DNA from: an uncultured Planctomycetia bacterium
GTDB taxonomy: Bacteria; Omnitrophota; Gorgyraeia; Duberdicusellales; 4484-171
NCBI GenBank assembly: GCA_964536865.1
Contig: CAZHYN010000011.1
Location: 1-32,000 of the forward strand
Direction: 5' to 3'
DNA: 32,000 nucleotides
How positions within the stretch are numbered: position 1 is the stretch's first letter; the number at the start of each line of letters is the position of its first letter. Shown here piece after piece: positions 7,189 to 29,397 of this stretch. The notes beneath the pieces are model-generated. The model was not told where the DNA came from. It saw nothing but the letters and a program-made list of their open reading frames with translations, and did not search any database. Both the position numbers and the translations under genes were made by a program.

Positions 7189-7202
7189 GGTTAAATTAAA
7201 AA

Positions 7203-8689: not shown

Positions 8690-8692
8690 GAA

Positions 8693-9571: not shown

Positions 9572-9573
9572 AA

Positions 9574-10293
9574 ATGGGAGTATACCATATTACTTATACA
9601 CCAGATTTAAGACAGGTTTGTCTCTATATGAATGGGGGATGTAGTTTTTCTTGCCATGGTTGTATCACTGATTGGCATCCTGAGGATTGTCATATAAAAG
9701 ATGCAAAAAAGAAAAAGAATAGAACTTTAAAAATTGAAGAAGTTATATCTTTTTTAAAATCCCTTGATTTTAAAAAAGTTATCTTTCTGGGGAAAGAACC
9801 AACAGAAGATGTAGATTTTTTACCACTGGCAAGATTATTGAAGGAAAGATTTTTTAGTTTTAACATTTTACTTACCAATGGATACAGATTTATAGAAGAA
9901 GAAGTAATTGATGAGGTCTGTGTAAGTATTAAAGCTATATCAAAAAAGTTATTTAAGGATTTTACAGGGAAAGATGACCCAGAAAGCGTCTTAAAAAACT
10001 TTAAAAGATATGTGGATAAATCCAAAGTTAAAGCGCGGGCAGAAAGTATTTTTATTCCTGATTATATTGAGAGTAAAGAGATAGAAAAGATTGCTCAATT
10101 TATTGCTAATATAAATCCCGAAATCCCTTATCGTATCGATGGATATATACCCTATTCAAGTAAGGATAGATTCAGGCGACCAACTAAGAACCAAATGGAA
10201 GAAGCCAAAAAAATAAGTAAGAGATATTTAAAAAATGTTTCCATTTTACACTCTAAGATGAAGGTAAGGTATAAAGTGGAGAGGGTATATTAA
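9574..10293 (+). CDS. Radical SAM protein, paralog 2
   Basis: CX3CX2C motif CSFSCHGC at nt 9640-9663, GKEPTEDVDFL, and C-terminal IEKIAQFIANINPEIPYRIDGY. It starts 2 nt after paralog 1. Confidence 0.75.
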   Translation: MGVYHITYTPDLRQVCLYMNGGCSFSCHGCITDWHPEDCHIKDAKKKKNRTLKIEEVISFLKSLDFKKVIFLGKEPTEDVDFLPLARLLKERFFSFNILLTNGYRFIEEEVIDEVCVSIKAISKKLFKDFTGKDDPESVLKNFKRYVDKSKVKARAESIFIPDYIESKEIEKIAQFIANINPEIPYRIDGYIPYSSKDRFRRPTKNQMEEAKKISKRYLKNVSILHSKMKVRYKVERVY

Positions 10294-10304
10294 GGGTATA
10301 TTAA

Positions 10305-12127: not shown

Positions 12128-12924
12128 TGCTAAAGATAAGAAACTTGGTGTGCGGTTATGATAATTTCTTGCTTAAAGATATAAGTTTTAAAGTAAATTC
12201 CTCGGAACTGGTAGGAATAATTGGACCTAATGGTTCGGGTAAAACTACATTGATAAGAGCGATAACTAAATTAGTAAGACCAAAAGAAGGGAAAATAATT
12301 TATCAGGGGAAAGATATAACCAAATTGAGTTTTAAAAAATTAGCAAAAGATATTGCCGTTGTTTCTCAGGATGCATATTTTCCTGAAATGATAAAAGTTA
12401 AAGATTTTGTGCTTTTAGGAAGAATTCCTCATTTTAAAAAATTCCAGTTTTTGGAGACAAACAAAGATTTAGAGATTGCAGAGGGAGTTATGAAGTTGAC
12501 AGGAGTATTAGAAATCAAAGATAGATTTTTAAAGGAAACAAGTGGTGGAGAAAGGCAGCTTGTTTTAATTGCAAAAGCATTGGCTCAGGAGCCAAAATTA
12601 CTTTTATTGGATGAGCCCACAGTCCATCTGGATATAACACACAAAATAAAGATACTGGATTTAATAAGAAGGTTAAATAAAAAATATGGTTTAACTGTGT
12701 TGGTTGTCTTGCATGATTTAAATTTAGCAAGTCAATACTGTGATAGGCTGATTCTGCTTAAGGAAGGAAAAATTTATAAGATTGGTATACCTTCTGAGGT
12801 TTTAACTTATCAAATCATTGAAGAAGTTTACCAAACAGTGGTAATTGTGAAAGAAAATCCCCTTAATTTTAGACCCTATGTATTTTTAGTTTCAGAGGAG
12901 GAAACAAAAAGGAGGAAAAGATGA
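12127..12924 (+). CDS. btuD: ABC transporter ATP-binding protein (vitamin B12 import)
   Basis: Walker A GPNGSGKTT, signature SGGERQ, and Walker B LLLLDEPT. 1-nt overlap with btuC. Confidence 0.88.
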   Translation: MLKIRNLVCGYDNFLLKDISFKVNSSELVGIIGPNGSGKTTLIRAITKLVRPKEGKIIYQGKDITKLSFKKLAKDIAVVSQDAYFPEMIKVKDFVLLGRIPHFKKFQFLETNKDLEIAEGVMKLTGVLEIKDRFLKETSGGERQLVLIAKALAQEPKLLLLDEPTVHLDITHKIKILDLIRRLNKKYGLTVLVVLHDLNLASQYCDRLILLKEGKIYKIGIPSEVLTYQIIEEVYQTVVIVKENPLNFRPYVFLVSEEETKRRKR

Positions 12925-13448
12925 GAAAAGGATTAATTCAGATTTATACCGGTGACGGAAAAGGCAAGACTACGGCAAGTATTGGTCTGGCTATAAGAGC
13001 AAAGGGGCAGAGATTTAGAGTTTGTGTTATCTATTTTCATAAAGAACCCAAAAGGTGGAGATACGGAGAATATAGGATTTTAAAAAAATTGGGAATAGAT
13101 ATATTTGGCTTTGCTAAAAAACATCCCCATTTTTATAAGAATGTAAAGAAAGAGGAGATGAGAAAAGAGTGTTTTAAAGCACTCAAGTTTATTAAGAAGA
13201 TATTTGAGAAAGCAAAATATGACTTACTTATTTTAGATGAGATACTCATCTCTTTACGGGAGGGATACTTAAAAGAAGAAGAAATTTTAGAAATAATGGA
13301 TTTAAAACCAAAAAATTTAGAGTTGGTTTTAACAGGCAGATTTCTGACAAAAAATATAACTGATAAGGCAGATTATGTAACAGAGATGAAGAAGATAAAG
13401 CATCCTTTCGATAAAGGGATAACGGGAAGAAGGGGGGTAGAATATTAA
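12921..13448 (+). CDS. cobO: Cob(I)yrinic acid a,c-diamide / cob(I)alamin adenosyltransferase
   Basis: IQIYTGDGKGKTTASIGLAIRA P-loop of the CobA/CobO/BtuR family and LILDE. 175 aa. Confidence 0.9.
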   Translation: MRKGLIQIYTGDGKGKTTASIGLAIRAKGQRFRVCVIYFHKEPKRWRYGEYRILKKLGIDIFGFAKKHPHFYKNVKKEEMRKECFKALKFIKKIFEKAKYDLLILDEILISLREGYLKEEEILEIMDLKPKNLELVLTGRFLTKNITDKADYVTEMKKIKHPFDKGITGRRGVEY

Positions 13449-13461
13449 AACATCGGAAAAG

Positions 13462-13617
13462 ATGAGTAAATCTATCTATAGGGAATATTTGGATAAGAGG
13501 AATAAAAAGATTGTAGAATTGAGGAAGAAAGGCAGGTCTTTAAAATGGCTGGCGTATGAATTCAAATTGAGCATTCGTCAGATAAGCAGAATTTTAGCAA
13601 AACATTCCAAAAAATAG
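13462..13617 (+). CDS. Small (51 aa) helix-turn-helix protein; not in the supplied ORF track
   Basis: Translated by hand as MSKSIYREYLDKRNKKIVELRKKGRSLKWLAYEFKLSIRQISRILAKHSKK. LKWLAYEFKLSIRQISRIL looks like a classical HTH. Only a weak SD (GGAAAAG) is present. Confidence 0.4.
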   Translation: MSKSIYREYLDKRNKKIVELRKKGRSLKWLAYEFKLSIRQISRILAKHSKK

Positions 13618-13700
13618 ATATGTCCAAAAATGTCTATTGATAGAAGTGAAGTGTAATGAAAAAATTTATTTATCGTTTGCTCTTTAAAGTATTTTGACCG

Positions 13701-13931
13701 GATAGGCAGAGGAAGTGATGGTGACCCGCCTTCGCCAGAGCAAAAACTTCATAGAGGTTAAGCTTTGGTGGGCAGGAATTCCATCCGCTGCCCGGCAACG
13801 GTAATGTCTCCATTTATTAGAAGGAGACGAGCCCGGTCGACTGCCTATCTTGGGAAGTACCTTCTTGGGGAGGGAAGAAAAATAAGTGAAATGTTATTAT
13901 TTAGCCGACCTCAAGAAGGTCGGCTTTTTTA
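13701..13931 (+). promoter_or_regulatory. Cobalamin riboswitch (compact type without the GCCACUG/GGGAAGGC P6 extension) plus terminator/antiterminator platform
   Basis: P1 GGAUAGGCAG (13701-13710) pairs with CUGCCUAUC (13842-13850). Other elements: AGGAAGUGAUGGUGA, CCGCUGCCCGGCAACGGUAA, a GUCUCC...GGAGAC hairpin, and the B12-box-like GAGCCCGGUCGACUGCC. Candidate antiterminator: 13860-13868 pairs with 13913-13921. Confidence 0.75.
13904..13931 (+). terminator. Intrinsic terminator of riboswitch 2
   Basis: Hairpin AGCCGACC-ucaagaa-GGUCGGCU (13904-13926) running into a T6 run (13926-13931). The SD AAGGAGG follows at 13941-13947. Confidence 0.7.
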
Positions 13932-13953
13932 TTAACTGAAAGGAGGTGTTGGA

Positions 13954-15816
13954 ATGAAAAAGTTTGTCTTAAGTCTGGGTATGGCTTTTATTCCTCTATT
14001 AGCTTCTACTCAGGAAATTCCTACTTATCAACTTGGCAAGATTGTGGTTACAGCTACAAGAACAGAGCAATATCAGGCAGAAGTTGGAAGTTCAACTACA
14101 GTGATAACGGATGAGGATTTAAAGAAAAAAGGAAAAACTTATCTTTTAGATGTTTTAAGAGAAACACCTGGGGTATCAGTGACGCAATATGGTGGATTTG
14201 GAGGTGGGACAACTGTATATCTTCGAGGTGCAGAACCAGGGCATACTTTGGTGATGATTGATGGAGTGGAAGTAAATGATCCTATGGGGATGTATGGAGG
14301 ATATTTTGATTTTGCTCATATATTAACTGATGATATTCAAAAAGTAGAAATTGTAAGAGGCCCTCACTCTACATTATATGGTTCTGATGCTATAGGTGGG
14401 GTGGTTAATATTATTACTAAAAAGGGAGAAGGTAGCCCAAAATGGCAGGCATTGTTTGAAGGCGGTTCATATGATACATTTAAAGAATCTTTAAGTTATG
14501 CAGGCTCAAATGAGAGATTTAATTATTATTTTTCTCTGGTTCGGTTAGATTCAGATGGGATTTCTAAGGCAGAAGATGGTTCTGAAGATGATGCTTATAG
14601 AAATACGACCTTCTCCAGTCGTCTTGGCTATAAAATTTCTGAATCATCGGATCTGGATTTAATTTTTCGCTATATAGATGCAAAGACAGATTTAGACGAT
14701 GGGGCATATCAGGATGATCCCAATTATATTGCTTGGTGGAAGAACTTTGTTGGAAAGGCTTCATTCACTCAATGTGTAAACTCTTTCTGGGATTACAATC
14801 TTTCTTTTTCCTATTCCCGAACCAAAAGGATGTATCGGGATGACCCTGATAGTGTGGACACAACCGATAATACTCATAACTGGTATATAGGAGATAACAG
14901 AAAATTAGAATGGCAGAACAATATTTATCCCTTAGAGTGGGATACAATAACATTAGGATTTGAATATGAGAAAATAAGGGGTTATGAGAATGGAAGAAAT
15001 TCCTGGAATAGATTTGATAGAAAGACAATAGATAACAAAGCCTTTTATCTTCAGAATCAAACTAAACTTTGGAATAAACTTTTTATAACTGCTGGAGTCA
15101 GATACGATGACCACGAAATTTTCGGCAATGAAACTACTTACAGAATATCAACTGCTTATATTATCCCTCGTATAGGAGGACGATTTAAAGCCAACTGGGG
15201 AACGGGTTTTAAAGCTCCTTCTTTGTTTCAGCTATATTCTTCAAGTTATGGAGATATAAATTTACAGCCTGAAGAAAGCAGAAGTTTTGATATCGGCTAT
15301 GAACAGAATTTTCTGGATAATAAGTTATCTTTAAATTTAGTTTATTTTCATAATAAAATCAAAAATCTAATTCAATTTGATATGTCTACCTGGAAGTATA
15401 AAAATATTGGAAAGGCAAAGACCAAAGGAGTAGAGACAGGATTTAGTTTTAGCCCTTCTGAAGACTTAAAGGTCGGCATTAACTATACTTACTTAGATTG
15501 TAAGAATGAAATTACAGGGAAAAAATTAGCCCGTAGACCTGAAGATGAAATTTCTTTAAACATAAATTACAGATTTTTAGATAGAGGGAATCTTAATATT
15601 TCCACAAGTTATGTTGGCTGCCGCTGGGATGATAGTGCAAATACAAAGAAATTAAAACGATATGCTAAGGTTGACCTTACAGTTACTTATGATTTGGCAA
15701 AGAATTTTCAAATTTTTGCCAGGGCAGAGAATTTGTTTGATAAGGATTATATGCAAATCCGGGGATACAAAATGCCTAAAGCATCCTTCTATGCTGGAGT
15801 AAAGAGAACTTTTTAA
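13954..15816 (+). CDS. btuB: TonB-dependent outer-membrane corrinoid receptor
   Basis: Signal peptide, TonB box KIVVTATR, plug motifs (LLDVLRETPGV, LRGAEPGHTLVMIDGVEV, IEIVRGP.STLYGSDAIGGVVNIIT), and a terminal aromatic F. It is controlled by a cobalamin riboswitch. Confidence 0.85.
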   Translation: MKKFVLSLGMAFIPLLASTQEIPTYQLGKIVVTATRTEQYQAEVGSSTTVITDEDLKKKGKTYLLDVLRETPGVSVTQYGGFGGGTTVYLRGAEPGHTLVMIDGVEVNDPMGMYGGYFDFAHILTDDIQKVEIVRGPHSTLYGSDAIGGVVNIITKKGEGSPKWQALFEGGSYDTFKESLSYAGSNERFNYYFSLVRLDSDGISKAEDGSEDDAYRNTTFSSRLGYKISESSDLDLIFRYIDAKTDLDDGAYQDDPNYIAWWKNFVGKASFTQCVNSFWDYNLSFSYSRTKRMYRDDPDSVDTTDNTHNWYIGDNRKLEWQNNIYPLEWDTITLGFEYEKIRGYENGRNSWNRFDRKTIDNKAFYLQNQTKLWNKLFITAGVRYDDHEIFGNETTYRISTAYIIPRIGGRFKANWGTGFKAPSLFQLYSSSYGDINLQPEESRSFDIGYEQNFLDNKLSLNLVYFHNKIKNLIQFDMSTWKYKNIGKAKTKGVETGFSFSPSEDLKVGINYTYLDCKNEITGKKLARRPEDEISLNINYRFLDRGNLNISTSYVGCRWDDSANTKKLKRYAKVDLTVTYDLAKNFQIFARAENLFDKDYMQIRGYKMPKASFYAGVKRTF

Positions 15817-15955
15817 ACTCAAGATAAAAAATTATATAGAGCAAGGAGTCTACTTCTGTTAAAGAATCTATAAGGTTTTATTTAATAACAACTTTGTCCG
15901 AGTGTGTAAAGTTTATGCCACATATTCTGGTTTCTCAACAAGAAAGGAGTAATTG

Positions 15956-16576
15956 ATGTTTGAATTCTTCTTAAAAGGTGGCTTTTTAATTTGGCCAATT
16001 CTTTTATGCTCAGTGATAGCTTTTGCTATTGTTTTAGAGAGACTGTGGTATTTTCACCGGATAAACACCAATGTAGGTAATCTAACTGCTCAGGTAAAGA
16101 AATTATTGCTGGAAAGCAAATTAGAGGAAGCAGAAAAGTTATGTAAAGAATCAAGAAGTCCTGTAGCACATATTTTAGGAGTAGGTATTCATATCCATAA
16201 AAGAGCTTATCCTGAGAAAGAAAAGATAGTCTCAAGAGCTGGTTCAAAAGAGTTAAGAAAATTGGAGAAAAATTTAAGGGGTTTAGGAATTATTGCTCAT
16301 ATATCACCTCTTTTAGGTCTTTTAGGCACAGTTACAGGGATGATTAAATGCTTTATGAAGATACAGGAGTTAGGAGGAAGGGTAGATGCACAAGTTTTAG
16401 CAGGAGGAATCTGGGAAGCTTTAATTACTACAGCAGCAGGATTATCTGTAGCAATTCCAGCAATAATTTTTTACCACTATTTTGAAGGAAAGATAGACAA
16501 TTTTTCTCATCAGATGAAGGATGCAGCAGAGGAAATTTTAGAGCACCTGAGCACCAGCACACCAGAGCGCCAGTAG
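15956..16576 (+). CDS. exbB: MotA/TolQ/ExbB proton-channel protein
   Basis: Three TM segments and PLLGLLGTVTGMI, the family signature. SD AAAGGAG at 15943-15949. I use the ATG at 15956; the track begins one codon earlier at a TTG. Confidence 0.85.
   Translation: MFEFFLKGGFLIWPILLCSVIAFAIVLERLWYFHRINTNVGNLTAQVKKLLLESKLEEAEKLCKESRSPVAHILGVGIHIHKRAYPEKEKIVSRAGSKELRKLEKNLRGLGIIAHISPLLGLLGTVTGMIKCFMKIQELGGRVDAQVLAGGIWEALITTAAGLSVAIPAIIFYHYFEGKIDNFSHQMKDAAEEILEHLSTSTPERQ
16543..16574 (+). repeat. Four tandem 8-nt units (GCACCWGN-like) at the exbB 3' end
   Basis: The units are gcacctga, gcaccagc, acaccaga and gcgccagt. They are followed immediately by AGGAAAGT and the exbD ATG. Confidence 0.6.
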
Positions 16577-18113: not shown

Positions 18114-18530
18114 ATGAAAGATATGAAAGAATCATACTTAAATAAATTAAGAAAGAATAAGCTTAAACTGACTCCTAAACGAAGAGCGATTATAGATTTC
18201 TTTCTATATAAGGACCGATATTTAACTCCTCAAGATCTCTGGAGAGGATTAAGGAAAGAGTTTGTCCACCTTGGTTTGCCCAGTATTTACAGAAATTTGG
18301 AAGCATTTTCTAAATGCGGAATATTGACAAAAATTCAAAGGCCTGATAGAAGGCTCTATTATGGACTATGTAAATCTGAGAATAAGCATCACCACCATAT
18401 AATTTGTATCAGATGTGGTAAGGTTAGAGAATTTTCTGATTGTGATTTATTCAAGAAGAAAACTATTAAAGGGTTTAAGGTAATAAGCCATTCTTTGCAG
18501 ATAGAGGGTATATGCTCTAATTGTAGATAA
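18114..18530 (+). CDS. Fur-family metalloregulator (metal specificity undetermined)
   Basis: Winged-helix N-terminal half (LTPKRRAIIDFF), the HHHHIICIRCGKV motif, and a C-terminal CSNC. Confidence 0.85.
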   Translation: MKDMKESYLNKLRKNKLKLTPKRRAIIDFFLYKDRYLTPQDLWRGLRKEFVHLGLPSIYRNLEAFSKCGILTKIQRPDRRLYYGLCKSENKHHHHIICIRCGKVREFSDCDLFKKKTIKGFKVISHSLQIEGICSNCR

Positions 18531-18591: not shown

Positions 18592-19182
18592 ATGTTTAAG
18601 CAAATATTGAAAGAATTAAGAAGGCACGCTCCCTTTACCAGTTTAGGAGCCTTTACTGGTATTATTATCATGATAATCTCCTATAAGCTCCCTGCCAGGA
18701 CTTCTTATAATATCTTTTATATACTTCATCCTCTCCATGTTCTTTTAAGCGCATTAGTCACTGCTTCTATGTATAAACTTTATAAAGATAAGGCTAAATT
18801 CTGGAATCTAATCTTAATTGGTTATGGGGGTTCGGTTGGTATAGCTACATTGAGCGATTGTGTAATTCCTTATTTGGGTGAGATATTATTAAATCTGCCT
18901 AATAGAGGTATTCATTTGGGATTTATTGAAAAATGGTGGTTAGTAAATCCTTTGGCATTTATAGGTATTGCTGTAGCTTATTTTAAGCCAACAACCAAAT
19001 TTCCTCATTCCGGTCATGTTCTCTTAAGCACCTGGGCATCCCTATTTCATATTATTATGGCAATAGGGCAGACTCTGAACTGGTTTTCTTATATAGTTGT
19101 CTTTTTATTTTTGTTTCTTGCGGTGTGGTTTCCTTGTTGTTTAAGCGATATCATATTTCCCTTATTGTTTGTGAGAAAATGA
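18592..19182 (+). CDS. Uncharacterised polytopic membrane protein with internal two-fold repeat and His/Asp/Cys motifs (putative metal transporter)
   Basis: SD GAGGAGG lies upstream. H46-P-L-H49-VLLS repeats as H139-S-G-H142-VLLS. LSDCVIP (res 87-93) repeats as LSDIIFP (res 184-190), and a CC pair is present. The protein is hydrophobic throughout. Confidence 0.7.
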   Translation: MFKQILKELRRHAPFTSLGAFTGIIIMIISYKLPARTSYNIFYILHPLHVLLSALVTASMYKLYKDKAKFWNLILIGYGGSVGIATLSDCVIPYLGEILLNLPNRGIHLGFIEKWWLVNPLAFIGIAVAYFKPTTKFPHSGHVLLSTWASLFHIIMAIGQTLNWFSYIVVFLFLFLAVWFPCCLSDIIFPLLFVRK

Positions 19183-19332: not shown

Positions 19333-19528
19333 AAAATTAAGAGTGTTTTTCCTCACCAAATTTACCTTACACTTCTCTCTTTTATCCCAAAAATTTACCC
19401 CCAACCACAGAAAGCCATCCCTCTTTTAAGGAAAGGGCGGGGTAAGCCCGTGGTTCGGGGTTTACTTAAATTTATTTTGCAATAACATTTAACACTTTAT
19501 TGTTGTAGCAGCAAAGGAAGGAAAAGTA

Positions 19529-19583: not shown

Positions 19584-19874
19584 ATGTCTATGATAGATTA
19601 TAGAAAGATAGCTGATTTTTTTGATGCCCTTTCTCATCCTATTCGGCTAAGAATAGTAGTGGAGTTACTGAGAGGTAGAAGGTGTGTGGGAGATATAAGA
19701 GAGTTAGTAGAGACTAAACAACCAAATGCCTCTCGTCACCTCTTACTTTTGAAGTTTAACGGTATTGTAGACTGGAGACAGGAGGGACGGATGAAGTGTT
19801 ACTTTTTAAGGAGTCCTCAATTAATAAAAGATATTTTAAAAGTATTGGAGAAAAACAAACTAAGTAAGCTTTAG
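19584..19874 (+). CDS. ArsR/SmtB-family transcriptional regulator
   Basis: LSHPIRLRIVVELLRGRRCVGDI followed by QPNASRHLLLLKFNGIV, which is the ArsR-type HTH. SD GGAAGGAGG lies upstream. Confidence 0.85.
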   Translation: MSMIDYRKIADFFDALSHPIRLRIVVELLRGRRCVGDIRELVETKQPNASRHLLLLKFNGIVDWRQEGRMKCYFLRSPQLIKDILKVLEKNKLSKL

Positions 19875-19906: not shown

Positions 19907-20401
19907 ATGAAAAAAAACAGAGAGCAGTTCTTAGAGATTAGGAAGTATCCAGACAAGATTTTAAGAGAGAAATGTCAACCTGTGGAGGAGATTACATCGA
20001 GAGAGAAAGATATATTTACAAATATGCTTTTTACTATGAAATATTTTAGAGGAATAGGCTTAGCTGCTCCTCAGGTAGGGATTCTTAGAAATTTAATTGT
20101 AATAGATATTGGAGAGGGAATTATAAAATTAGCAAATCCCAAAGTTATTAAGAGAAAGGGCGAAGAGGAGGAGATGGAGGGTTGCTTAAGTATTCCTGGC
20201 ACAGGGGTTAGTGTAAAGAGATCTTATGAGATTGTGGTAGAGGCTTTAAATCAAGAAGGTAAGCTTATAGAGGTAAAGGCAAAGGGTCTTCTAGCAAGAG
20301 TATTACAACATGAGATAGATCATTTAGAAGGGAAGTTAATTATAGATTATTTACCATTTTTAGAGAAGATAAAATTTAGATTAAAGAGAAGGAATAGATG
20401 A
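19907..20401 (+). CDS. def: Peptide deformylase
   Basis: All three signature motifs are present: GIGLAAPQVG, EGCLSIPG and QHEIDHLEG. Confidence 0.92.
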   Translation: MKKNREQFLEIRKYPDKILREKCQPVEEITSREKDIFTNMLFTMKYFRGIGLAAPQVGILRNLIVIDIGEGIIKLANPKVIKRKGEEEEMEGCLSIPGTGVSVKRSYEIVVEALNQEGKLIEVKAKGLLARVLQHEIDHLEGKLIIDYLPFLEKIKFRLKRRNR

Positions 20402-20431: not shown

Positions 20432-21487
20432 ATGTTAGTGGATGGAAGGACAAGAGATTTATTGAGAGAAAAGTTTGATCAAGAATTGGAAGAGAAAGTA
20501 GATATTAAAGTTTTTACTCGTTCAATTATCATTGATAGTGAAAGCTTAGAGAGTGCTAGATTAGCTGAAAGTTTAGTAAGAGAACTTTCTCAAATTAGTA
20601 GTAAGATAATACCAGAATTTATGAGTTTAGAAGACAATTTAGCTAAAGAGCTAAATCTATCAGTTTCTCCTACAATTCTAATAGGAAGGGATAAAGATTA
20701 TAATATTCAATTTTGGGGAAATTCTTTCATTTGGATACCTCAGGTATTTATTGAAACAATATCTTTGGTATCTCAAGGAAAGAGCAAGTTAGAGTCGAAG
20801 TTAGTTAGTAAGTTAAGGAATATAGATAGGGAACTTCTTGTGGATATATATTTTAATCGTCAATTACTCATTTCTAATTCATTAGGACTATTAGCCATTA
20901 GGATAGCAGTGGAATTTCCTAAAATGATTAAAGTACGGTTTAGAGGGGAACAAAAAACTGAAGATAGAATAGGGAAGCTAGCTTTATTAAAATTACCAGC
21001 TATCTTGATAAACGGTGAAAGAGACTCCTTACTTACACCTCCTATCTCGGAGACTGAGTTTATAAAGAGGCTTATTTTATATGGAGCTCCCCATAGGAAG
21101 GAGCTTATTGTTGAATTAGAGGAAGAGGAGAAGAAGAAGTTTGAATTGGTAGATAATCCAGACTCTCCTATTTTACTTTCTCATAAGAATTTTGATGAGG
21201 CAGTAAGAAGGTATGTTATTCTTGTAGTAGACTTCTGGGCACAGTGGTGTGCTCCCTGTTTGATGTTGGCTCCCATAATAGAGAGATTGGCGAAAAAGTA
21301 TAAAGGGAAGATAGTTTTTGGAAAGTTAAATATAGAAGAGAACCAAGAGATAGCTTCTCGTTTTGGGATAATGTCTATTCCTACCTTAATTATCTTTAAA
21401 AAAGGTAATATTATGGATACTCTTATTGGAGTAATGCCGGAGTCTACATTGGAGGAAAAATTCAATATGTATTTAGAGAAAAGATAA
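20432..21487 (+). CDS. Multi-domain thioredoxin-fold protein: two Cys-less PDO/glutaredoxin-like modules plus a C-terminal active thioredoxin (WCAPC)
   Basis: The C-terminus reads VVDFWAQWCAPCLMLAP...MSIPTLIIFKKG. The N-terminus (LLREKFDQELEEKVDIKVFT...SPTILIG) resembles protein-disulfide-oxidoreductase units but has no CxxC. Confidence 0.75.
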   Translation: MLVDGRTRDLLREKFDQELEEKVDIKVFTRSIIIDSESLESARLAESLVRELSQISSKIIPEFMSLEDNLAKELNLSVSPTILIGRDKDYNIQFWGNSFIWIPQVFIETISLVSQGKSKLESKLVSKLRNIDRELLVDIYFNRQLLISNSLGLLAIRIAVEFPKMIKVRFRGEQKTEDRIGKLALLKLPAILINGERDSLLTPPISETEFIKRLILYGAPHRKELIVELEEEEKKKFELVDNPDSPILLSHKNFDEAVRRYVILVVDFWAQWCAPCLMLAPIIERLAKKYKGKIVFGKLNIEENQEIASRFGIMSIPTLIIFKKGNIMDTLIGVMPESTLEEKFNMYLEKR

Positions 21488-21603: not shown

Positions 21604-21900
21604 ATGAAGATGCAGGAGAGGATTGAGAAAGCTCTAAAGAGTATAGAGCATCCTGAAATTGCATATACTCTTTGGGAATTAGGAATGCTTGAAGGGATTG
21701 TTGTTAAAGAAGATAAGGTGTTAGTTACTTTGAAACTTCCTAGAGTAGGTGTGCCCATTCGAGAACAATTGATAGAGAGTATCAAGAGTGCTGTGAAAAA
21801 TGAAAATGTTCATATAGATGTTAAGATAAGTATAAAAGAAATGAGTGATGAGGAACGTATAAGATTTATGAAGATGGCCCAAGAAGCATGGAAAGGATAA
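21604..21900 (+). CDS. DUF59/MIP18-family (SufT-like) Fe-S assembly protein
   Basis: The pattern IEKALKSIEHPEIAYTLWELGMLEGIVVKEDKVLVTLKLP is typical of DUF59. SD GGAGGG lies 5 nt upstream. Confidence 0.75.
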   Translation: MKMQERIEKALKSIEHPEIAYTLWELGMLEGIVVKEDKVLVTLKLPRVGVPIREQLIESIKSAVKNENVHIDVKISIKEMSDEERIRFMKMAQEAWKG

Positions 21901-21901: not shown

Positions 21902-22858
21902 ATGAGTTCTTTTGAGAAAAATGAAAAAATAGAACGGAAAGAGGTATTAATAATTGGAGGTGGTCCGGCAGGACTTAGTGCAGGAATCTACGCTGGATAT
22001 TTTGGAATTGAGGCATTAATTCTTGAGAAGGGAATCTTGGGAGGCGTAGCGGGAGAAATTCCTCTGTTAGAGAACTATCCTGGGATTGAGAGTAAAATTA
22101 CAGGTAGAGATTTAATAGAAAGAATGGTGAGAAGATGTGATGAGGTAGGAGTAGAGAGGCATCAGTTTGAAGAGGTTGTTAAATTACAACTTAAAGATAC
22201 ACCTAAAGTAGTGGAAACAGATAAGTCTAAATATCTTGCTGATAATGTAATTATTGCCTCAGGAAGAGCTCATAGAACATTGGGGGTAGTAGGAGAGGAG
22301 GAGTTTAGGGGAAGAGGAGTAAGCTACTGTGCTGTGTGTGATGGAGCTTTCTTCAAGAATAGGAAAGTGACAGTAATAGGAGAAAGTTTTCCTGTTGTAG
22401 AAGTTGCTTTATATTTTTCTAATTTAGCATCGGAAGTAGTTCTAGTGTATTTAGGTTCTAAAATAGATATAGAAAAGAGTTTAATCACTAGATTAGAAGA
22501 AAAGAAAGTAAAACTTCTAAAAAACGTAGAGGTGAAGGAGATTAAAGGAGAAGTTAAAGTAAGAAGTGTGGTTGTAGGGGATAAAAAAACACACGTTACT
22601 AAGGAGATAGACACCGATGGTGTATTCTTTCAGGTAGAGGGAATTCCCCAGAGCAGACTAGCGAAAGAGGCAGGGGTGAGGGTAGACAAAGAAGAATATG
22701 TGATTATAGATGAAAAGATGAGAACCAATATTAAAGGAGTGTATGCTATCGGCGATGTTACTAGTTGTGAAGTTAAACGGATAATTACTGGAGTTGCTCA
22801 GGCTTTAGTAGCCATCACGGATATATTTAGGGAGAAAGCCGGATATGTTACAAAATAA
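21902..22858 (+). CDS. Thioredoxin-reductase-like flavoprotein lacking NADPH-binding motifs
   Basis: FAD motif IIGGGPAGLSAG, redox CAVC (nt 22328-22339), and C-terminal GVYAIGDV. The expected GGGNxAxEEA reads GESFPVVEVA, and the expected HRRDxFRA reads YLGSKIDI. Confidence 0.85.
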   Translation: MSSFEKNEKIERKEVLIIGGGPAGLSAGIYAGYFGIEALILEKGILGGVAGEIPLLENYPGIESKITGRDLIERMVRRCDEVGVERHQFEEVVKLQLKDTPKVVETDKSKYLADNVIIASGRAHRTLGVVGEEEFRGRGVSYCAVCDGAFFKNRKVTVIGESFPVVEVALYFSNLASEVVLVYLGSKIDIEKSLITRLEEKKVKLLKNVEVKEIKGEVKVRSVVVGDKKTHVTKEIDTDGVFFQVEGIPQSRLAKEAGVRVDKEEYVIIDEKMRTNIKGVYAIGDVTSCEVKRIITGVAQALVAITDIFREKAGYVTK

Positions 22859-24629
22859 TCCAGAAAAGCGAATAGGTATTTTTGTTTGTCATTGTGGTAA
22901 GAATATCGCAGGAGGAGTAGATGTTCAAGGGTTAGTTGAATTTTCAAAACATCTTGAGGGTGTAACTTTTGCTACAGATAACAAATTCTGTTGTTCCCAA
23001 GAGGGACAGATTATTATTCAAAAAGCGATAAAAGAGAATAATCTAAGTAGATTTATTGTAGCTGCCTGTAGTCCCAATCTTCATTTAGGGACATTTCAGA
23101 GATGTGGTAAAGAAGTAGGGGTAGAGGAAGCATTCGTTGACCTAATTGATATTAGGAAATGGACTATGTCTGGTAGTCCCTACAAAGTCAATCCTCAAGA
23201 AGCTTTTGAGAATTCTAAGAAGCTTATTAGTCAGGCAGTAAAAAGAATGCGTCTTAAGCGATTAATTCCTAAAGTTAATGTGAAAGTTGAACAATCAGTA
23301 TTGGTCATTGGAGGAGGTATAGCAGGTTTAGAGGTAGCTTTGGACTTAGGAGAGAAGGGGTATAAAGTTTACATTGTAGAACGTCTTCCTACCATTGGAG
23401 GCAAGATGGCTTTGCTCTATAAGGTTTTTCCTACAAATGATTGTGCACCTTGTATACTAGCGCCTAAGACTGCTTATGCCAACATTCATCCTAATATAGA
23501 GATCTTTACTAATGCAGAAGTTACCAATGTGAAGGGATATATAGGGAATTTTGAGGTTACAATTACTCAGAATCCTCGCTATGTTGATGAGAGTAAGTGT
23601 ACAGGATGTGGAATATGTGTAGATAAGTGTCCTGTGGAGGTAATAGATAAGGAATTTTCAGGAGGGTTGGGAAAACGGAAAGCAATATATATCCCTTACG
23701 AACAAGCAGTTCCTAAGAAAGCCACTATTGACTCTCAAAATTGTCTCTACTTTAGAAAGGGTATTTGTAAGGTGTGTGAAAAAGTTTGTCCTCAGAATGC
23801 TGTAGATTTTCATCAGCAGACTAAAACAGTAACATTAAAGGTAGGGAGTATAGTTGTGGCTACAGGTTTTGATGAATACGAGCCTACCAAGAAAGTAGAG
23901 TATGGATACACTCGGTATAAGGATGTTATTACCCAGTTTCAATTAGCTCGGCTTTTAGATATAGATGGACCTACAAAGGGGAGACTTATAAGACCCAGCG
24001 ATGGAAAAGAGCCAAAGAGGATTGCTATGATTCAGTGTGTGGGGTCGCGAGATGAAAATGCAAATAAGTATTGTTCTTCTGTTTGCTGTATGTATGCTTT
24101 AAAGCATGCCCAAATAATAAAAGAGATGATTTCCTCTGATATCGAGATTTATATTTGTTATATAGATATGCGAACACCAGGAAAAGGATTTGAGGAATAC
24201 TACCGACAGACAAGAGAGTTAGGAGTTAATTTTATTCATGGTAGACCAGCAGAGGTAATAGAAAACTTTGATAAGAAGAATTTTATTTTAAAAGTTGAAG
24301 ATAAAGATATAGGAGCACTTCTTAACTTGGAAGTAGATCTAGTGGTATTGTCTTGTGCTATAGTTCCTTCAAAAGGAGCTGAGCGTCTTTCGGAAATTTT
24401 GCACATAAATTTGGATGAAAATGGTTTCTTTCAGGAAGTCCATCCTAAACTTAGACCGGTAGAGACAAATATAAGAGGAATCTACATCTGTGGATGTGCC
24501 CAAGGACCAAAGGATATTCCCGACTCTATTACTCAAGCCAAGGCTGTTGCCTCTTGTATAGACAGTGAATTGAGAAAAGGAAGTATAGAACTTCCTGAGT
24601 TTATGATAAAGGCAGAGAGACCAAATTAG
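22845..24629 (+). CDS. hdrA: Heterodisulfide reductase subunit A-like FAD/Fe-S flavoprotein
   Basis: N-terminal IGIFVCHCGKNIAG, VIGGGIAGLE, and FPTNDCAPC. Inserted ferredoxin motifs CTGCGICVDKCP and CKVCEKVCP. QCVGSRD and RGIYICGCAQGPKDI. The start overlaps the TrxR-like gene by 14 nt. Confidence 0.85.
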   Translation: MLQNNPEKRIGIFVCHCGKNIAGGVDVQGLVEFSKHLEGVTFATDNKFCCSQEGQIIIQKAIKENNLSRFIVAACSPNLHLGTFQRCGKEVGVEEAFVDLIDIRKWTMSGSPYKVNPQEAFENSKKLISQAVKRMRLKRLIPKVNVKVEQSVLVIGGGIAGLEVALDLGEKGYKVYIVERLPTIGGKMALLYKVFPTNDCAPCILAPKTAYANIHPNIEIFTNAEVTNVKGYIGNFEVTITQNPRYVDESKCTGCGICVDKCPVEVIDKEFSGGLGKRKAIYIPYEQAVPKKATIDSQNCLYFRKGICKVCEKVCPQNAVDFHQQTKTVTLKVGSIVVATGFDEYEPTKKVEYGYTRYKDVITQFQLARLLDIDGPTKGRLIRPSDGKEPKRIAMIQCVGSRDENANKYCSSVCCMYALKHAQIIKEMISSDIEIYICYIDMRTPGKGFEEYYRQTRELGVNFIHGRPAEVIENFDKKNFILKVEDKDIGALLNLEVDLVVLSCAIVPSKGAERLSEILHINLDENGFFQEVHPKLRPVETNIRGIYICGCAQGPKDIPDSITQAKAVASCIDSELRKGSIELPEFMIKAERPN

Positions 24630-24642
24630 GAGGTGGTAGAGT

Positions 24643-24912
24643 ATGGCTGAGATCTATATAGAAGAATTTATGTCACCAGGATGTGTAGGTTGTCCAGCGG
24701 TAAAACAGATGCTTGAAGAGTTAGTAAAGGAGTTAGATGGGGAGATTACTATAGAGGAGGTGGATATAAGTGTCGATAGTGCAAGAGCTATTCAGTATGG
24801 GGTGATGTCCGTTCCAGCTATAGCTATTAACGGAATATTGAAATTCATAGGTGTCCCAAAGAAAGAAGATTTAAGGAAAGCCTTGGAGGAGGAGTTAAAA
24901 AAGGATGGATAA
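24643..24912 (+). CDS. Small thioredoxin/glutaredoxin-fold protein (CVGC active site)
   Basis: 89 aa. SPGCVGCPAV near the N-terminus and the cis-Pro region MSVPAIAING. Strong SD AGGAGGTGG. It lies between hdrA and hdrC. Confidence 0.75.
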   Translation: MAEIYIEEFMSPGCVGCPAVKQMLEELVKELDGEITIEEVDISVDSARAIQYGVMSVPAIAINGILKFIGVPKKEDLRKALEEELKKDG

Positions 24913-25435
24913 GAAGGAGCTATTTAGCCAACCTATTTCAAACGTTAATTTCGATCCTACTTTTGAAGCTGAAGTTATAGCTCATGAGGAGGCTAAAGAT
25001 TTGAAGGCTTGTTTTAACTGTGGAGCTTGTACAGCAGGATGTCCTATTCATGAAGTATTTCCTGAGTATGATCCTAAGAAGTTAGCTAAGATGGTAAGGT
25101 TAGGAATGAGAAAGGAGGTATTAAGTAGTCCTTATATTTGGTATTGTGCTACTTGTCACAACTGCGAACAACGTTGTCCTCAGAATGTTAAGTTTTTCAA
25201 TGTTTTAAACGTCTTAAAGAATATGGCAGCTAAGGAAGGATATGCTCCTTCTGTATGGGTTGATCAGATAAAACATGTTATTAAGACAGGAATAATATTC
25301 CCCCCCCAAGAGAGTTGGATTAAAAGAAGGGAGAAGCTTTCTCTCCCCCCTTTAAGGTTGGAGGAGAGAGAAGAAATAAAAAAGATAATTGAACTGGAGG
25401 AGATTGATAGGTTAAGTAAGGATAAGAGTGAGTGA
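24905..25435 (+). CDS. hdrC: Heterodisulfide reductase subunit C-like (2x[4Fe-4S])
   Basis: CFNCGACTAGCP and CATCHNCEQRCP with typical HdrC spacing. 8-nt overlaps on both sides. Confidence 0.8.
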   Translation: MDKKELFSQPISNVNFDPTFEAEVIAHEEAKDLKACFNCGACTAGCPIHEVFPEYDPKKLAKMVRLGMRKEVLSSPYIWYCATCHNCEQRCPQNVKFFNVLNVLKNMAAKEGYAPSVWVDQIKHVIKTGIIFPPQESWIKRREKLSLPPLRLEEREEIKKIIELEEIDRLSKDKSE

Positions 25436-26303
25436 GTATGCTTTATTTTTAGGATGTACTACTCCTACAAAAGCTGTTCAATATGAGCTTGCTTCAAGAT
25501 GGGTCTGCAGGCATTTAGAAATTAACCTAGTAGATATTAAAGATTTTTTTTGTTGTGGGATAAATCACGTTAATTTGGATAGAGAGACAGCACTTCTTAT
25601 GGCAGCAGCAAACTTAGCTTATGCTGAAGCCAAAGGATTAGATATACTTACTCTCTGTGCCGCTTGTACAGGAGCGCTTTCCGAAGCAATAGAGAAGTTA
25701 GAGAATTTCCAGATAAGAGAAAGGGTAAATGAAAAGTTACATAGAATAGGCATAGAATATAAAGGAAAAGTTAGAGTAAAACATCTCTCTAGAGTTCTTT
25801 ACGAAGATATAGGAGTAGAGAGATTGAGAAGAAGTATAAAAAGAGATCTTTCTCAGCTCAAAGTAGCTCCCCATTATGGATGCCATTACTTGAAACCAAA
25901 AACTGCCCTAAGAGGAGTCGATGAGCCAGATAATCCTACAACATTACATGCTCTTATATCTGCTATAGGAGCTACTCCCGTAGAATATGAAACACTTAAT
26001 CTTTGTTGTGGGGGTAAGGTATTTCCTGTTTCTGGAGAGTTAGCCCATTCATTAATCCAGAAGAAGCTGGATAATTTGAAGGAGAAGGAAGTAGATGCAA
26101 TGGTTCTTCAATGTCAGACTTGCTATCTTATGTATGGGGAAGAACAAAAGGAAATAGAAGGAAAGAGTGGTAAGAAATACAACCTACCAGTTATTTTTTA
26201 CCCCCAACTCTTAGGAGTGGCTTTAGGAGCAGATCCTATAAAAGATTTAGGGTTTAATTTTCATACTATTTCTGTGGATGGTCTTTTAAGTAAAGTGAGA
26301 TAG
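25428..26303 (+). CDS. hdrB: Heterodisulfide reductase subunit B-like (two CCG domains)
   Basis: LFLGCTTP...FFCCG and APHYGCHYLKP...LCCGG. GTG start overlapping the hdrC stop. Confidence 0.85.
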   Translation: MSEYALFLGCTTPTKAVQYELASRWVCRHLEINLVDIKDFFCCGINHVNLDRETALLMAAANLAYAEAKGLDILTLCAACTGALSEAIEKLENFQIRERVNEKLHRIGIEYKGKVRVKHLSRVLYEDIGVERLRRSIKRDLSQLKVAPHYGCHYLKPKTALRGVDEPDNPTTLHALISAIGATPVEYETLNLCCGGKVFPVSGELAHSLIQKKLDNLKEKEVDAMVLQCQTCYLMYGEEQKEIEGKSGKKYNLPVIFYPQLLGVALGADPIKDLGFNFHTISVDGLLSKVR

Positions 26304-26312
26304 GAAGTTTCG

Positions 26313-26897
26313 ATGTATTCTAAAGTAAGAAAGTGGTTGGAGGAGGATGGAGAAAAATTCTTAAGGAAAGTTGGACTTAGGAGGGGGCAAATAGTGTTAG
26401 ATTTTGGATGTGGAGAAGGACATTATACTATTCCTGCAAGTAAAGTAATTGGGGAAAAAGGTAAGGTCTATGCTTTTGATAAGGATGCTTATATACTAGA
26501 GAGACTAAGAAGATTAGCCGAAGAAGAAGGATTAAGCAACATAGAGATAATTAAAGGGGATACCAAGATTCCTTTAGAAGATAACTCTATTGATGTAGTT
26601 CTCTGTTATGACGTTATCCATTATGAAAAATATAGAGAGAGGATTTATAAAGAAGTCTTTCGTATTTTAAAATCAGAGGGCTTCTTTTCTCTTTATCCTA
26701 AGCACTATAGAGATGATTATCCTCTGATGGAGTTAGCATCTTTAGGATTGGAAGAAGTAATAAAAGAAGTAGAGAAAGTTGGTTTTACTTTACAAGAAAA
26801 ATTGTTCTATCAGTGTCTTCATGATGAATATTACAATGAGTGCTGTATATTAAATTTTATTATTTCTGAAGAGAAAAAGGAGGAAAGTAGTGTTTAA
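26313..26897 (+). CDS. Class I SAM-dependent methyltransferase
   Basis: Motif I VLDFGCGEGHYT, an acidic post-I residue (YAFD), and VDVVLCYDVIHY. Confidence 0.8.
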   Translation: MYSKVRKWLEEDGEKFLRKVGLRRGQIVLDFGCGEGHYTIPASKVIGEKGKVYAFDKDAYILERLRRLAEEEGLSNIEIIKGDTKIPLEDNSIDVVLCYDVIHYEKYRERIYKEVFRILKSEGFFSLYPKHYRDDYPLMELASLGLEEVIKEVEKVGFTLQEKLFYQCLHDEYYNECCILNFIISEEKKEESSV

Positions 26898-27183
26898 AGT
26901 AGATGAGAAAAAGTGTATCGGATGTGGAGCTTGTATAAATGTTTGCCCTGTTGGCGCAATATCAATGAAGGATGGAAAAGCTAAGATTGATGTAAAGAAA
27001 TGTTTAAACTGTGGGAAGTGTGCTCAAGTTTGTCCTCAAGAAGCGATCTATTCTGAGTCAGGTGAATTCCAAAGTAAATTTATTCCTAGACCAGGTTTTA
27101 ATTTCTTTACTTTTAGTAGAGGGAGAGGTATGTCTGGAAGGAGAAAGAAAGGTTTTGGTAGGGGAAGAGGAGGGAGGTGGTGA
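26890..27183 (+). CDS. 2x[4Fe-4S] ferredoxin with Arg/Gly-rich C-terminal tail
   Basis: CIGCGACINVCP and CLNCGKCAQVCP, then the tail SRGRGMSGRRKKGFGRGRGGRW. GTG start overlapping the methyltransferase 3' end. Confidence 0.85.
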   Translation: MFKVDEKKCIGCGACINVCPVGAISMKDGKAKIDVKKCLNCGKCAQVCPQEAIYSESGEFQSKFIPRPGFNFFTFSRGRGMSGRRKKGFGRGRGGRW

Positions 27184-28632: not shown

Positions 28633-28906
28633 GTTTGGAGGAATTTATAGACATTTGCTTGGAGGCAATGAGAGAGATTAAAGAAGATCTTGGATTGTAA
28701 GAATAGAGATTCTGTAATGAAGAGTACAGGTAAGGAGATAAGTGTTAATTTTAAGCAAAAAAGGATTTAGATTCTAAATGTGATGCAAATTATGGATGGG
28801 TAGACACTTTAAAGGGTAACAAAGAGCATCTTCTTCTTCATATTAAAGAAATTCCCCATGATTGTTGAATACTACATTTGTGTTTCTTAAAGGTAAGAAA
28901 GGAGGG

Positions 28907-29227
28907 ATGATGGAGGTTAGAGTGGATGATACAAATTTCCAGCAGGAAGTATTAGAGTCAGATATTCCAGCTTTAGTAGATTTTTGGGCTCCTTGGTGTA
29001 TGCCTTGTCATATAGTTGCTCCTATTCTTTCTGAGATTGCTATAGAGTATGAGGGAAAGTTGAAGGTATGTAAGTTAAATGTTGACGAAGCTCCTAATAT
29101 CGCTTCCCGGTATGAAGTAATGAGTATACCTACCTTGGCACTGTTTAAAAAAGGTGAAATGGTAGACAAAATTATTGGTGCTGTTGGTAAGCCCGAATTA
29201 GAAAATATGGTTAAATATTATATTTGA
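28907..29227 (+). CDS. trxA: Thioredoxin
   Basis: VDFWAPWCMPC active site and MSIPTLALFKKGE. I prefer the ATG at 28907, which is preceded by AAAGGAGGG, over the track TTG at 28862. Confidence 0.88.
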   Translation: MMEVRVDDTNFQQEVLESDIPALVDFWAPWCMPCHIVAPILSEIAIEYEGKLKVCKLNVDEAPNIASRYEVMSIPTLALFKKGEMVDKIIGAVGKPELENMVKYYI

Positions 29228-29278: not shown

Positions 29279-29307
29279 TTGACATTTGGGAAAGAGAAAA
29301 ATAAAAT
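29279..29307 (+). promoter_or_regulatory. Near-consensus sigma70 promoter for tRNA-Glu
   Basis: TTGACA at 29279-29284, an exact 17-nt spacer, and TAAAAT at 29302-29307. The tRNA 5' end lies 13 nt downstream. Confidence 0.6.
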
Positions 29308-29319: not shown

Positions 29320-29397
29320 GGCCCCATCGTCTAGCCCGGTTAAGGATACGTGGTTCTCAGCCACGAGGCACGGGTTCAAATCCCGTTGGGGCTGCCA
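29320..29397 (+). tRNA. tRNA-Glu (anticodon CUC), CCA encoded
   Basis: Folded by hand. Acceptor GGCCCCA/TGGGGCT. Anticodon stem CGTGG/CCACG with loop TTCTCAG. T arm ACGGG-TTCAAAT-CCCGT. Discriminator G, then CCA, then a T run. Confidence 0.93.

Follow-up and report, generated by a model that had tools for sequence, protein, structure and literature searches.

What do homologues of the heterodisulfide reductase HdrABC do in bacteria that are not methanogens, and what feeds them with electrons? And what reduces those thioredoxin reductases (TrxRs) of strict anaerobes that make no use of NAD(P)H? Both questions are raised at once by a locus in a 32,000-nt stretch of DNA from an Omnitrophota metagenome-assembled genome (assembly GCA_964536865.1, contig CAZHYN010000011.1, positions 1 to 32,000; the whole of this stretch is referred to below as the window). 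At this locus the gene for a TrxR-like flavoprotein is followed by hdrA, the gene for a small thioredoxin (Trx), hdrC and hdrB. We find that these five core genes are one conserved, tightly coupled and obligatory genetic unit that is inherited together, and the cassette is suggestive of a hitherto undescribed means, probably powered by ferredoxin, of holding cellular thiols in the reduced state.

Results

The five core genes are a conserved unit

Homologues of the TrxR-like protein with 49-62% identity are abundant in metagenomes, and those that carry a name belong to Omnitrophica, Aminicenantes and Ca. Saelkia. Seeding a metagenome scan with the subfamily-specific peptide TDGVFFQLEEIPNSQ, which sidesteps the generic CAVCDG motif, yielded 59 loci; the related loci, 65 in number, collapsed to 49 dereplicated groups at 97% identity, many of the loci stopping short of the full cassette. 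When these surroundings were searched with tblastn, HdrA lay directly downstream of the TrxR-like protein in every subfamily locus that was long enough to assess (52/52), and the complete five-gene core was present in all 29 of the loci with at least 4.6 kb of downstream sequence. The sole exception, locus L146, carries a TrxR that is 38% identical and thus lies outside the subfamily. Exact-protein look-ups gave the same picture: the order TrxR-like, HdrA, small Trx, HdrC, HdrB was seen in five of five at 51-59% identity, and in the reverse test three of three loci picked by HdrA homologues (one of them from a WOR-3 genome) had a TrxR-like gene upstream and Trx-HdrC-HdrB downstream, such that look-ups from both sides show the cassette in 8/8 cases. 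The carriers are uncultured anaerobic bacteria from the Omnitrophota, to which the present genome belongs, Aminicenantes, WOR-3 and Acidobacteriota.

As a background control, we examined 80 loci of ordinary TrxRs (at most 40% identity, taken from among the matches listed from a genome contig scan with the full TrxR alignment, which contains the generic CAVCDG motif). None of these had hdrA, hdrB or hdrC within 10 kb. Since linkage to hdrA is universal among the assessable subfamily loci and absent from all 80 generic TrxR loci, the arrangement lies beyond chance. P0116 served as a second control: this protein is 52% identical and keeps GGGNSA and HRK, and it is found in an archaeal context beside NfnAB-like genes, with no Hdr linkage. 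It is the closest relative to have kept the NADPH motifs (L087:8001-11350); RtcB and archease are encoded nearby, and NfnA- and NfnB-like genes lie directly 3', possibly a different pairing of a TrxR with a partner.

The cassette is also compact. Across the dereplicated loci, the median gap from the TrxR-like gene to hdrA is 3 nt (n=40), followed by gaps of 13, -8 and -4 nt, and in all 21 of the dereplicated groups that carry the Trx gene it sits between hdrA and hdrC and overlaps hdrC. Additionally, the pairwise-identity matrices of the five core proteins correlate with one another (r=0.75-0.89).

Some loci depart from the common form. An acyl-carrier-like (PP-binding) gene stands between hdrA and trx at L003:12737-12991, an additional open reading frame of 180 aa separates the TrxR-like gene from hdrA in L111 and L112, and two more divergent HdrA-like genes (36-40% identity) lie downstream at L096:14601-17368.

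The initial annotation, which had been made from the window alone, described a TrxR without NADPH motifs beside hdrA, with a small Trx before hdrC, and made the case for a distinct system depend on whether this order is kept in related genomes. The neighbourhood survey above is strongly positive on both counts. It had further stated that none of the usual Hdr partners is visible. Indeed, Pfam and NCBIfam domain scans of the whole window found no mvhADG, flxABCD, fdh, nuo, hydrogenase or lipoate-binding genes, and neither Mvh, Fdh, Flx nor any other donor module is among the recurrent families of the ~65 related loci, so that no canonical partner was found that might account for HdrABC in the ordinary way. 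The parallel statement that sulfur-carrier genes are lacking holds for the window but not for the related loci, 12 of the 49 groups having a DsrE-like gene.

The TrxR-like flavoprotein appears to lack an NADPH site only

Judged by its sequence, the first protein of the cassette would be a complete thioredoxin-disulfide reductase save for the NADPH site. It spans positions 2-296 of the 300 of TIGR01292 and carries the FAD motif GGGPAG, the redox-active pair C143-A-V-C146 together with Asp147, and R138, F150 and F151, which make up the Trx-docking triad as defined by earlier work (PMC5627308). In 121 of 121 subfamily sequences the FAD GxGxxG, C143 and C146, Asp147 and the docking triad (K or R at 138, with F150 and F151) are invariant. 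Of the motifs of NADPH-dependent TrxRs, GGGNSA is replaced in the window protein by GESFPV and HRRxxxR by YLGSKID, and the HRR motif for the 2'-phosphate of NADPH is retained in only two of the 121 sequences. As for the GxGxxA loop, 63 sequences keep it and 58 have lost it, a pattern consistent with relaxed selection. The TQ/NGK motif of DvTRi was found in none of the 121.

The fold is that of a conventional TrxR. The closest TrxRs in the PDB match at up to E=1.4e-53, with 180-185 bits for the NTR-type enzymes 7JYP, 3CTY and 4ZN0 as against 106 bits (E=1.9e-29) for the FFTR 6GNA. The family alignment was used to compute an AlphaFold model (pLDDT 85), which shows the two domains of an ordinary TrxR; its best fold match in Foldseek is the Thermosipho TrxR 7JYP (TM 0.87-0.90), and no FFTR or DDOR structure is among its top 50 matches. 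Assignment to three known groups was considered and rejected: the protein is not a canonical NTR (no NADPH site and a TIGR01292 score under the cutoff; Table 1), it falls outside the FFTR clade by sequence and by fold, and it is not a DvTRi, having no TQ/NGK motif.

HdrABC resembles the methanogen enzyme without the HdrA ferredoxin domain

HdrA is ~55% identical to methanogen HdrA and aligns with residues 3-575 of the 654 of 5ODC_A. It comprises an N-terminal Fe-S domain, an FAD domain (TrxR-like) and an inserted 2x[4Fe-4S] domain, and then stops at a point that corresponds to residue ~586 of 5ODC; likewise, the match to NCBIfam HdrA2 covers positions 1-569 of 777. What is missing is the C-terminal ferredoxin domain, which in methanogen HdrA receives the electrons of MvhD and is the usual entry point. 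This domain is absent from 31/31 dereplicated family members (565-612 aa), and the top 120 database homologues have lengths of 565-599 aa. The sHdr structure 6TJR matches HdrA residues 332-570 only (E=2e-36).

In HdrA, C194, C197 (which serves the cluster shared across the dimer), K409 and the Cys motifs are invariant in the 31 family members, and the position of E356 is occupied by Ala in every one of them. K409 and E356 together have been proposed to mark a bifurcating HdrA (PMC12054007). The loss of E356 thus argues against textbook bifurcation, and since Glu356 is always replaced by Ala, plain downhill electron transfer is favoured over canonical bifurcation.

In the two other subunits, HdrC has eight invariant Cys (29 sequences), and HdrB, which aligns over its full length with 5ODC_B, has two complete CCG motifs and ten invariant Cys (27 sequences); these CCG motifs are presumably the disulfide-reducing site. 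HdrABC therefore looks like a complete methanogen-type heterodisulfide reductase but for the lost HdrA ferredoxin domain. It nevertheless differs from a canonical HdrABC in that there is no C-terminal domain, no E356 and no donor module, and the scores stay under the equivalog cutoffs (Table 1).

The small Trx encoded between HdrA and HdrC has an active site, FMSPGC(V/T)GCP, that is invariant in the family alignment; in the window protein the CxxC is CVGC, not CPxC. Against TIGR00411, the model of a glutaredoxin-like Trx fold of about 85 aa with a CxxC, it scores under the cutoff (Table 1). Its best PDB matches, both over the full length, are the methanogen thioredoxins MTH807 (1NHO, E=1.4e-21) and MJ0307 (1FO5, E=4e-18). 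The top 120 homologues are all of 87-91 aa and contain no fusions.

The cassette lies in an operon headed by an ArsR regulator

Eleven genes, all on the + strand by open reading frame calls and with labels backed by Pfam and NCBIfam, run from an ArsR/SmtB-family regulator to a ferredoxin (Table 1). Their spacing, gene by gene, is 32, 30, 116, 1, -14, 13, -8, -8, 9 and -8 nt. The ArsR regulator heads the operon; a terminator-like hairpin (19440-19467) is situated just 5' of it, and a promoter/terminator scan of the cluster gave no convincing internal terminator, the counts being at or near shuffle expectation. All the gene identities, coordinates and overlaps of the initial annotation were reproduced here, as were the ArsR, three-module Trx-fold and DUF59 genes that it listed upstream of the core, but the peptide deformylase gene between ArsR and the Trx-fold gene had been overlooked.

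Table 1. Genes of the operon, with window coordinates and the profile or structure matches behind each label
Gene product	Position	Strand	Support
ArsR/SmtB-family regulator	19584-19874	+	Pfam HTH_5; NCBIfam HTH_metalloreg 69 bits vs cutoff 55 (above)
Peptide deformylase	19907-20401	+	Pfam Pep_deformylase E=8e-46; TIGR00079 140 bits, above cutoff
Three-module Trx-fold protein	20432-21487	+	TIGR01068 116 bits (residues 250-345); TIGR02187 PDO 72 bits (residues 7-195)
DUF59 / FeS_assembly_P protein	21604-21900	+	Pfam PF01883 E=4.5e-10
TrxR-like, low-Mr thioredoxin-reductase-type flavoprotein	21902-22858	+	TIGR01292 278 bits vs cutoff 343 (below)
HdrA, 594 aa	22845-24629	+	5ODC_A E=8.5e-180; NCBIfam HdrA2 701 bits vs cutoff 1100 (below)
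Small Trx, 89 aa, CVGC	24643-24912	+	TIGR00411 (MJ0307 family) 84 bits vs cutoff 92.75
HdrC, 2x[4Fe-4S]	24905-25435	+	TIGR03290 100 bits vs cutoff 160 (below)
HdrB, GTG start	25428-26303	+	TIGR03288 248 bits vs cutoff 345 (below); 5ODC_B E=5.4e-62
Class I S-adenosylmethionine (SAM)-dependent methyltransferase	26313-26897	+	Pfam Methyltransf_31/11/25
2x[4Fe-4S] ferredoxin, GTG start	26890-27183	+	8 invariant Cys

Five solved HdrA sequences can be aligned, over their C-terminal ferredoxin domain, with the ferredoxin of the operon (8rvv_A 576-625, E=1.9e-13; 5odc_A 578-634), which matches clostridial ferredoxins more weakly (3e-10). The similarity is suggestive, not strong, and the protein may be a detached version of, or a substitute for, the missing HdrA domain, or it may be an electron donor. 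Its C-terminal tail (27112-27180; RGRGMSGRRKKGFGRGRGGRW) is Gly/Arg-rich and basic, an uncommon feature among ferredoxins. At related loci where a ferredoxin gene comes after that of the methyltransferase, its product has a comparable, conserved RG-rich tail, whereas a second ferredoxin subtype, present at other loci, carries a helical extension at the C-terminus in its place.

Among the other operon proteins, the three-module protein combines an N-terminal, Cys-less double Trx fold resembling PDO and the AhpF N-terminus with a canonical C-terminal thioredoxin (WCAPC), and matches PDB thioredoxins at E=1e-38; in all mapped loci except L096 its gene is directly 3' of hdrB. The DUF59 protein is likely an Fe-S maturation helper. 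The methyltransferase has a Cys, C98, that is invariant in its relatives; it was rejected as ArsM or TehB, as its ArsM/UbiE-like similarity is that of a generic Rossmann region (77 bits vs cutoff 263) and there is no TehB Pfam match. The ArsR protein has two conserved Cys, C34 and C72, kept in 92%, and was rejected as a BigR-type persulfide sensor (43 bits vs cutoff 155). Peptide deformylase, found near the cassette in 4 related groups, is tied to the system weakly.

The neighbourhood is a thiol-redox, sulfur and Fe-S maturation island

Several accessory families recur around the cassette, here counted as dereplicated groups out of 49. The most frequent are stand-alone ferredoxin (15), ArsR with two conserved Cys (14), a DsrE-like protein with CGTCKVRCG, encoded in most mapped loci immediately 5' of the TrxR-like gene (12), the methyltransferase (12), a conserved membrane protein that in the window lies at 18592-19182 (12), and a Trx-like protein with CGRMGPMC (11). 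They are followed by a Zn-ribbon protein (9), the three-module Trx protein, usually right 3' of hdrB (8), and a ParA/NUBPL-type Fe-S NTPase (8). DUF59, a CoA-disulfide-reductase/NADH-oxidase-like flavoprotein, SLAC1/TehA and radical SAM proteins are each present in 6 groups, and TauE, Fur, MBL and NUDIX each in 5. The neighbourhood of the cassette is thus a thiol-redox, sulfur and Fe-S maturation island.

In the DsrE/TusD-like protein (117 aa; L084:7635-7988 and 11 other groups) CGTCKVRCG is invariant and more than 80% of the columns are conserved; its gene, absent from the window, is often preceded by those for the CoADR/NADH-oxidase-like flavoprotein and TauE. A 122-aa protein that belongs to no database family (L134:4244-4612, with counterparts in 10 other groups) resembles a thioredoxin fold whose active site is atypical, CCGRMGPMC ... 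GLPFTVYFKNG, and is usually encoded downstream of hdrB or ferredoxin. At some loci (L148:1-4898 and L149:2097-3947) an OYE/FMN plus FAD flavoprotein (2,4-dienoyl-CoA-reductase-like, 616-650 aa) is encoded upstream of the cassette, accompanied in L148 by a Fer4 protein and an FAD_binding_2 protein. These upstream proteins are possible NAD(P)H-linked partners, and they are not conserved across the family.

In the window itself, a gene for a Fur/PerR-family regulator (18114-18530) lies just upstream of the operon, next to that for the membrane protein mentioned above, which is a multi-pass protein of 196 aa with no Pfam or NCBIfam match and with conserved His/Cys motifs (HPxH, FPHxGH and PCCLSD). 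The first 17 kb are taken up by a cobalamin riboswitch (119-363, 74 bits) and then a cobalamin salvage and uptake cluster (461-16576) comprising CobU/T/S/D, CbiZ, BtuR, two radical-SAM genes and BtuF-like/FecCD/ABC transport, as well as a TonB-dependent receptor and ExbB/ExbD/TonB. On the 3' side, genes on the same strand between 27353 and 29397 encode an MBL-fold hydrolase, an HD-domain protein and, at 28862-29227, a canonical thioredoxin (WCMPC); tRNA-Glu(CTC) (29320-29397) is closely preceded by a promoter-like site at 29279-29307 that is strong (11/12 matches), and trp genes also lie downstream.

Discussion

A candidate ferredoxin-driven complex

The cassette brings together two redox enzymes, each of which is without its own input device, and the two were never found apart. 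For these reasons we put forward a proposal that can be tested, namely that HdrA is the electron donor of the TrxR and a thioredoxin the partner of Hdr. The reading that we tentatively prefer, though we would place it somewhat below an even chance, is a single complex that works without NAD(P)H, is probably driven by ferredoxin and passes electrons to thioredoxin and to a second disulfide by plain downhill transfer. In such a complex the TrxR-like protein and HdrABC, each short of its own input, would complement each other. Reduced ferredoxin is the usual low-potential currency of such fermenters, and whether operon-encoded or cellular it would most likely feed the Fe-S/FAD system of HdrA. One path would then lead from HdrA to the FAD of the TrxR-like protein, on to the CAVC disulfide and so to the small Trx, probably also to the nearby Trx-fold proteins; the other would run from HdrA through HdrC to the CCG clusters of HdrB and end at a second disulfide or a persulfide. 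The whole might act as a ferredoxin-powered thiol-reducing hub under ArsR- and Fur-type regulators, serving disulfide, sulfur or oxidative stress. That the proteins associate, that electrons flow in this direction and that ferredoxin is thereby linked to the Trx pool is what we infer from the sequences.

Several observations weigh against a joint, downhill complex. No fusions among the core genes (TrxR-HdrA, Trx-HdrC or others) are present in the top 120 homologues each of the TrxR-like protein, HdrA and Trx, and a model of the TrxR-like protein and HdrA folded as one chain without an alignment had low confidence (pLDDT 34, pTM 0.27). FFTR enzymes show that a motif-less TrxR can by itself draw on free ferredoxin, and Hdr is thus not obviously required for Trx reduction. 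A stand-alone ferredoxin gene accompanies the cassette in only 15/49 groups, although many of these loci are short, and no gene identifies the electron donor. Finally, HdrA retains K409 as well as both Fe-S domains (N-terminal and inserted) of its low-potential branch, a set that would also suit a bifurcating enzyme.

Alternative explanations

This last point bears on a scheme that we regard as rather unlikely, in which the TrxR-like protein occupies the MvhD/hydrogenase port of HdrA and the complex carries out Trx-coupled flavin-based bifurcation or confurcation. The Trx dithiol/disulfide would be the mid-potential couple, ferredoxin the low and the HdrB substrate the high one, such that either oxidation of Trx(SH)2 drives the reduction of ferredoxin, or ferredoxin and a thiol jointly reduce Trx. 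Besides the retained K409 and Fe-S domains, HdrA keeps C197; it is exactly the input domain that has been lost, and the operon ferredoxin, being similar to it, could bridge the FADs of the TrxR-like protein and HdrA. Moreover, the redox sites of the TrxR-like protein, HdrB and the ferredoxin branch are all invariably retained. However, the proposed hallmark Glu356 is Ala throughout the family. At textbook potentials (Trx ~-270 mV, ferredoxin ~-450 mV, CoM-S-S-CoB -140 mV) the Trx-driven direction would lie between about thermoneutral and slightly uphill, and no physiological use of the confurcating direction is obvious. We also think it unlikely that the operon co-transcribes two independent enzymes, that is, an FFTR-like ferredoxin:thioredoxin reductase consisting of a TrxR-like dimer and the small Trx, and an HdrABC ferredoxin:disulfide reductase that recycles a low-molecular-weight thiol, the two being regulated together through thiol homeostasis. 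Motif-less TrxRs, namely FFTR, DFTR and DvTRi, do work as stand-alone dimers (PMC10880999, PMC7278568, PMC5627308), and both the lack of fusions and the general thiol-redox character of the neighbourhood fit this arrangement. Yet it would leave the TrxR-like protein and HdrA each without an input device, and it does not sit well with a Trx gene embedded between hdrA and hdrC, and overlapping the latter, in every group that carries it. Nor has the TrxR-like subfamily been seen without hdrA, or the HdrA subfamily without the TrxR-like gene, and the TrxR-like protein is itself outside the FFTR clade.

It is doubtful, too, that the small Trx is the substrate of HdrB, with a protein disulfide reduced by the CCG clusters, while the TrxR-like protein serves another Trx-fold partner (e.g. 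the three-module protein), much as a split AhpF would. The analogy would be DsrC with DsrK or with Flx-Hdr, and the chemistry would be like that of ferredoxin:thioredoxin reductase. Such a division of labour might be suggested by the Trx gene adjoining and overlapping hdrC/hdrB, by the AhpF/PDO-like double Trx fold in the N-terminal half of the three-module protein, whose gene comes after hdrB in 8 groups, and by matches to the profile TIGR03143 (AhpF homologue) in all three of the TrxR-like protein, the small Trx and the three-module protein. Against it, the small Trx resembles the MJ0307/MTH807 type, which in methanogens is a TrxR substrate, the TrxR-like protein keeps its Trx-docking triad, the three-module protein is present in only 8/49 groups, and HdrB is not known to accept proteins. 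It is highly improbable that the genes stand for an ordinary heterodisulfide reductase for CoM-S-S-CoB that came from methanogens and has its partner genes elsewhere in the genome, even though methanogen proteins are the closest matches of HdrA, HdrB and the small Trx. CoM-S-S-CoB reduction is unlikely because the host is bacterial, as indicated by peptide deformylase, TonB/ExbBD and an Omnitrophica annotation at 98% identity. Furthermore, none of the NCBIfam Hdr equivalog cutoffs is reached, HdrA is without the MvhD-docking domain, the ~65 loci contain no Mvh or Fdh genes, and the cassette is spread over several non-methanogenic phyla.

If the complex does not bifurcate, it would still represent a new route from ferredoxin to thioredoxin and a new partner for HdrA. 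A bifurcating enzyme would be the first flavin-based bifurcating or confurcating enzyme with a protein dithiol as mid-potential partner, and hence a new substrate class; it would link the thioredoxin, ferredoxin and low-molecular-weight thiol pools of anaerobes directly in terms of energy. With five genes for soluble proteins, the cassette is compact and amenable to heterologous expression, and it is widespread in candidate phyla that have no cultured models (Omnitrophota, Aminicenantes and WOR-3).

Comparison with known systems

The literature covered here concerns HdrA diversity (PMC12054007, PMC9012536), electron bifurcation (PMC5861303, PMC6085437) and TrxR diversity (PMC10880999, PMC7278568, PMC5627308). 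In line with the earlier designation of the system as undescribed, we found neither linkage of a TrxR gene to hdrA nor a thioredoxin as Hdr partner mentioned in the searchable literature, although an earlier mention is not excluded.

On the Hdr side, the closest parallel is with MvhADG-HdrABC of Methanothermococcus thermolithotrophicus (5ODC), which shares HdrA residues 3-575 with C194, C197 and K409, both CCG motifs of HdrB and the eight Cys of HdrC. The present system differs in having no C-terminal ferredoxin domain, Ala in place of Glu356, no MvhD or hydrogenase and a bacterial host, and in having a TrxR-like flavoprotein and a thioredoxin built into the operon. HdrA2B2C2 of Methanosarcina acetivorans is likewise a soluble Hdr without hydrogenase, HdrA2 being the best NCBIfam match, and it has ferredoxin:heterodisulfide activity. 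However, the C-terminal ferredoxin and MvhD-like extension of HdrA2 (model positions 570-777) is absent here, and these bacteria are not expected to have its donor F420H2. Bacterial modules of the Hdr type for which a protein-bound disulfide or trisulfide has been proposed as substrate are FlxABCD-HdrABC of Desulfovibrio, and DsrK/DsrC. In contrast to the former, which brings an NADH-oxidising module and the MvhD-like FlxD, the cassette has neither of these, and its associated protein is a thioredoxin rather than the DsrC of the latter. Membership of the sHdr type was rejected: HdrA has 594 aa, not the ~350 aa of the short type, hdrC and hdrB are single and there is no LbpA. sHdr loci are characterised by duplicated hdrC/hdrB, a lipoate-binding protein and DsrE3/TusA, of which only a DsrE-like gene is found, in the related groups noted above and not in the window.

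On the TrxR side, AhpF and TIGR03143 also join a TrxR-type module to a double Trx-fold partner, but the scores are far below cutoff (225 vs 688 bits), the parts are on separate genes and no peroxiredoxin gene is adjacent. FFTR, which acts in ferredoxin-reliant anaerobes, has the same low-Mr TrxR fold with the CxxC kept and the NADPH motifs gone; it is, however, a distant relative (106 bits for 6GNA against 185 for 7JYP), and no Hdr genes have been reported with it, whereas the link to hdrABC is obligatory here. DvTRi of Desulfovibrio vulgaris is again a TrxR of a strict anaerobe that cannot use NAD(P)H; it reduces a Trx, is linked to oxidative or disulfide stress, and its physiological donor was stated to be unknown (PMC5627308). 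The loss of NADPH motifs is common to both, but DvTRi has TQ/NGK in place of HRRD (PMC5627308), a motif not seen in this subfamily, and no Hdr link has been described for it. Taken as a whole, the system is like a hybrid of the methanogen HdrABC and an NAD(P)H-independent TrxR.

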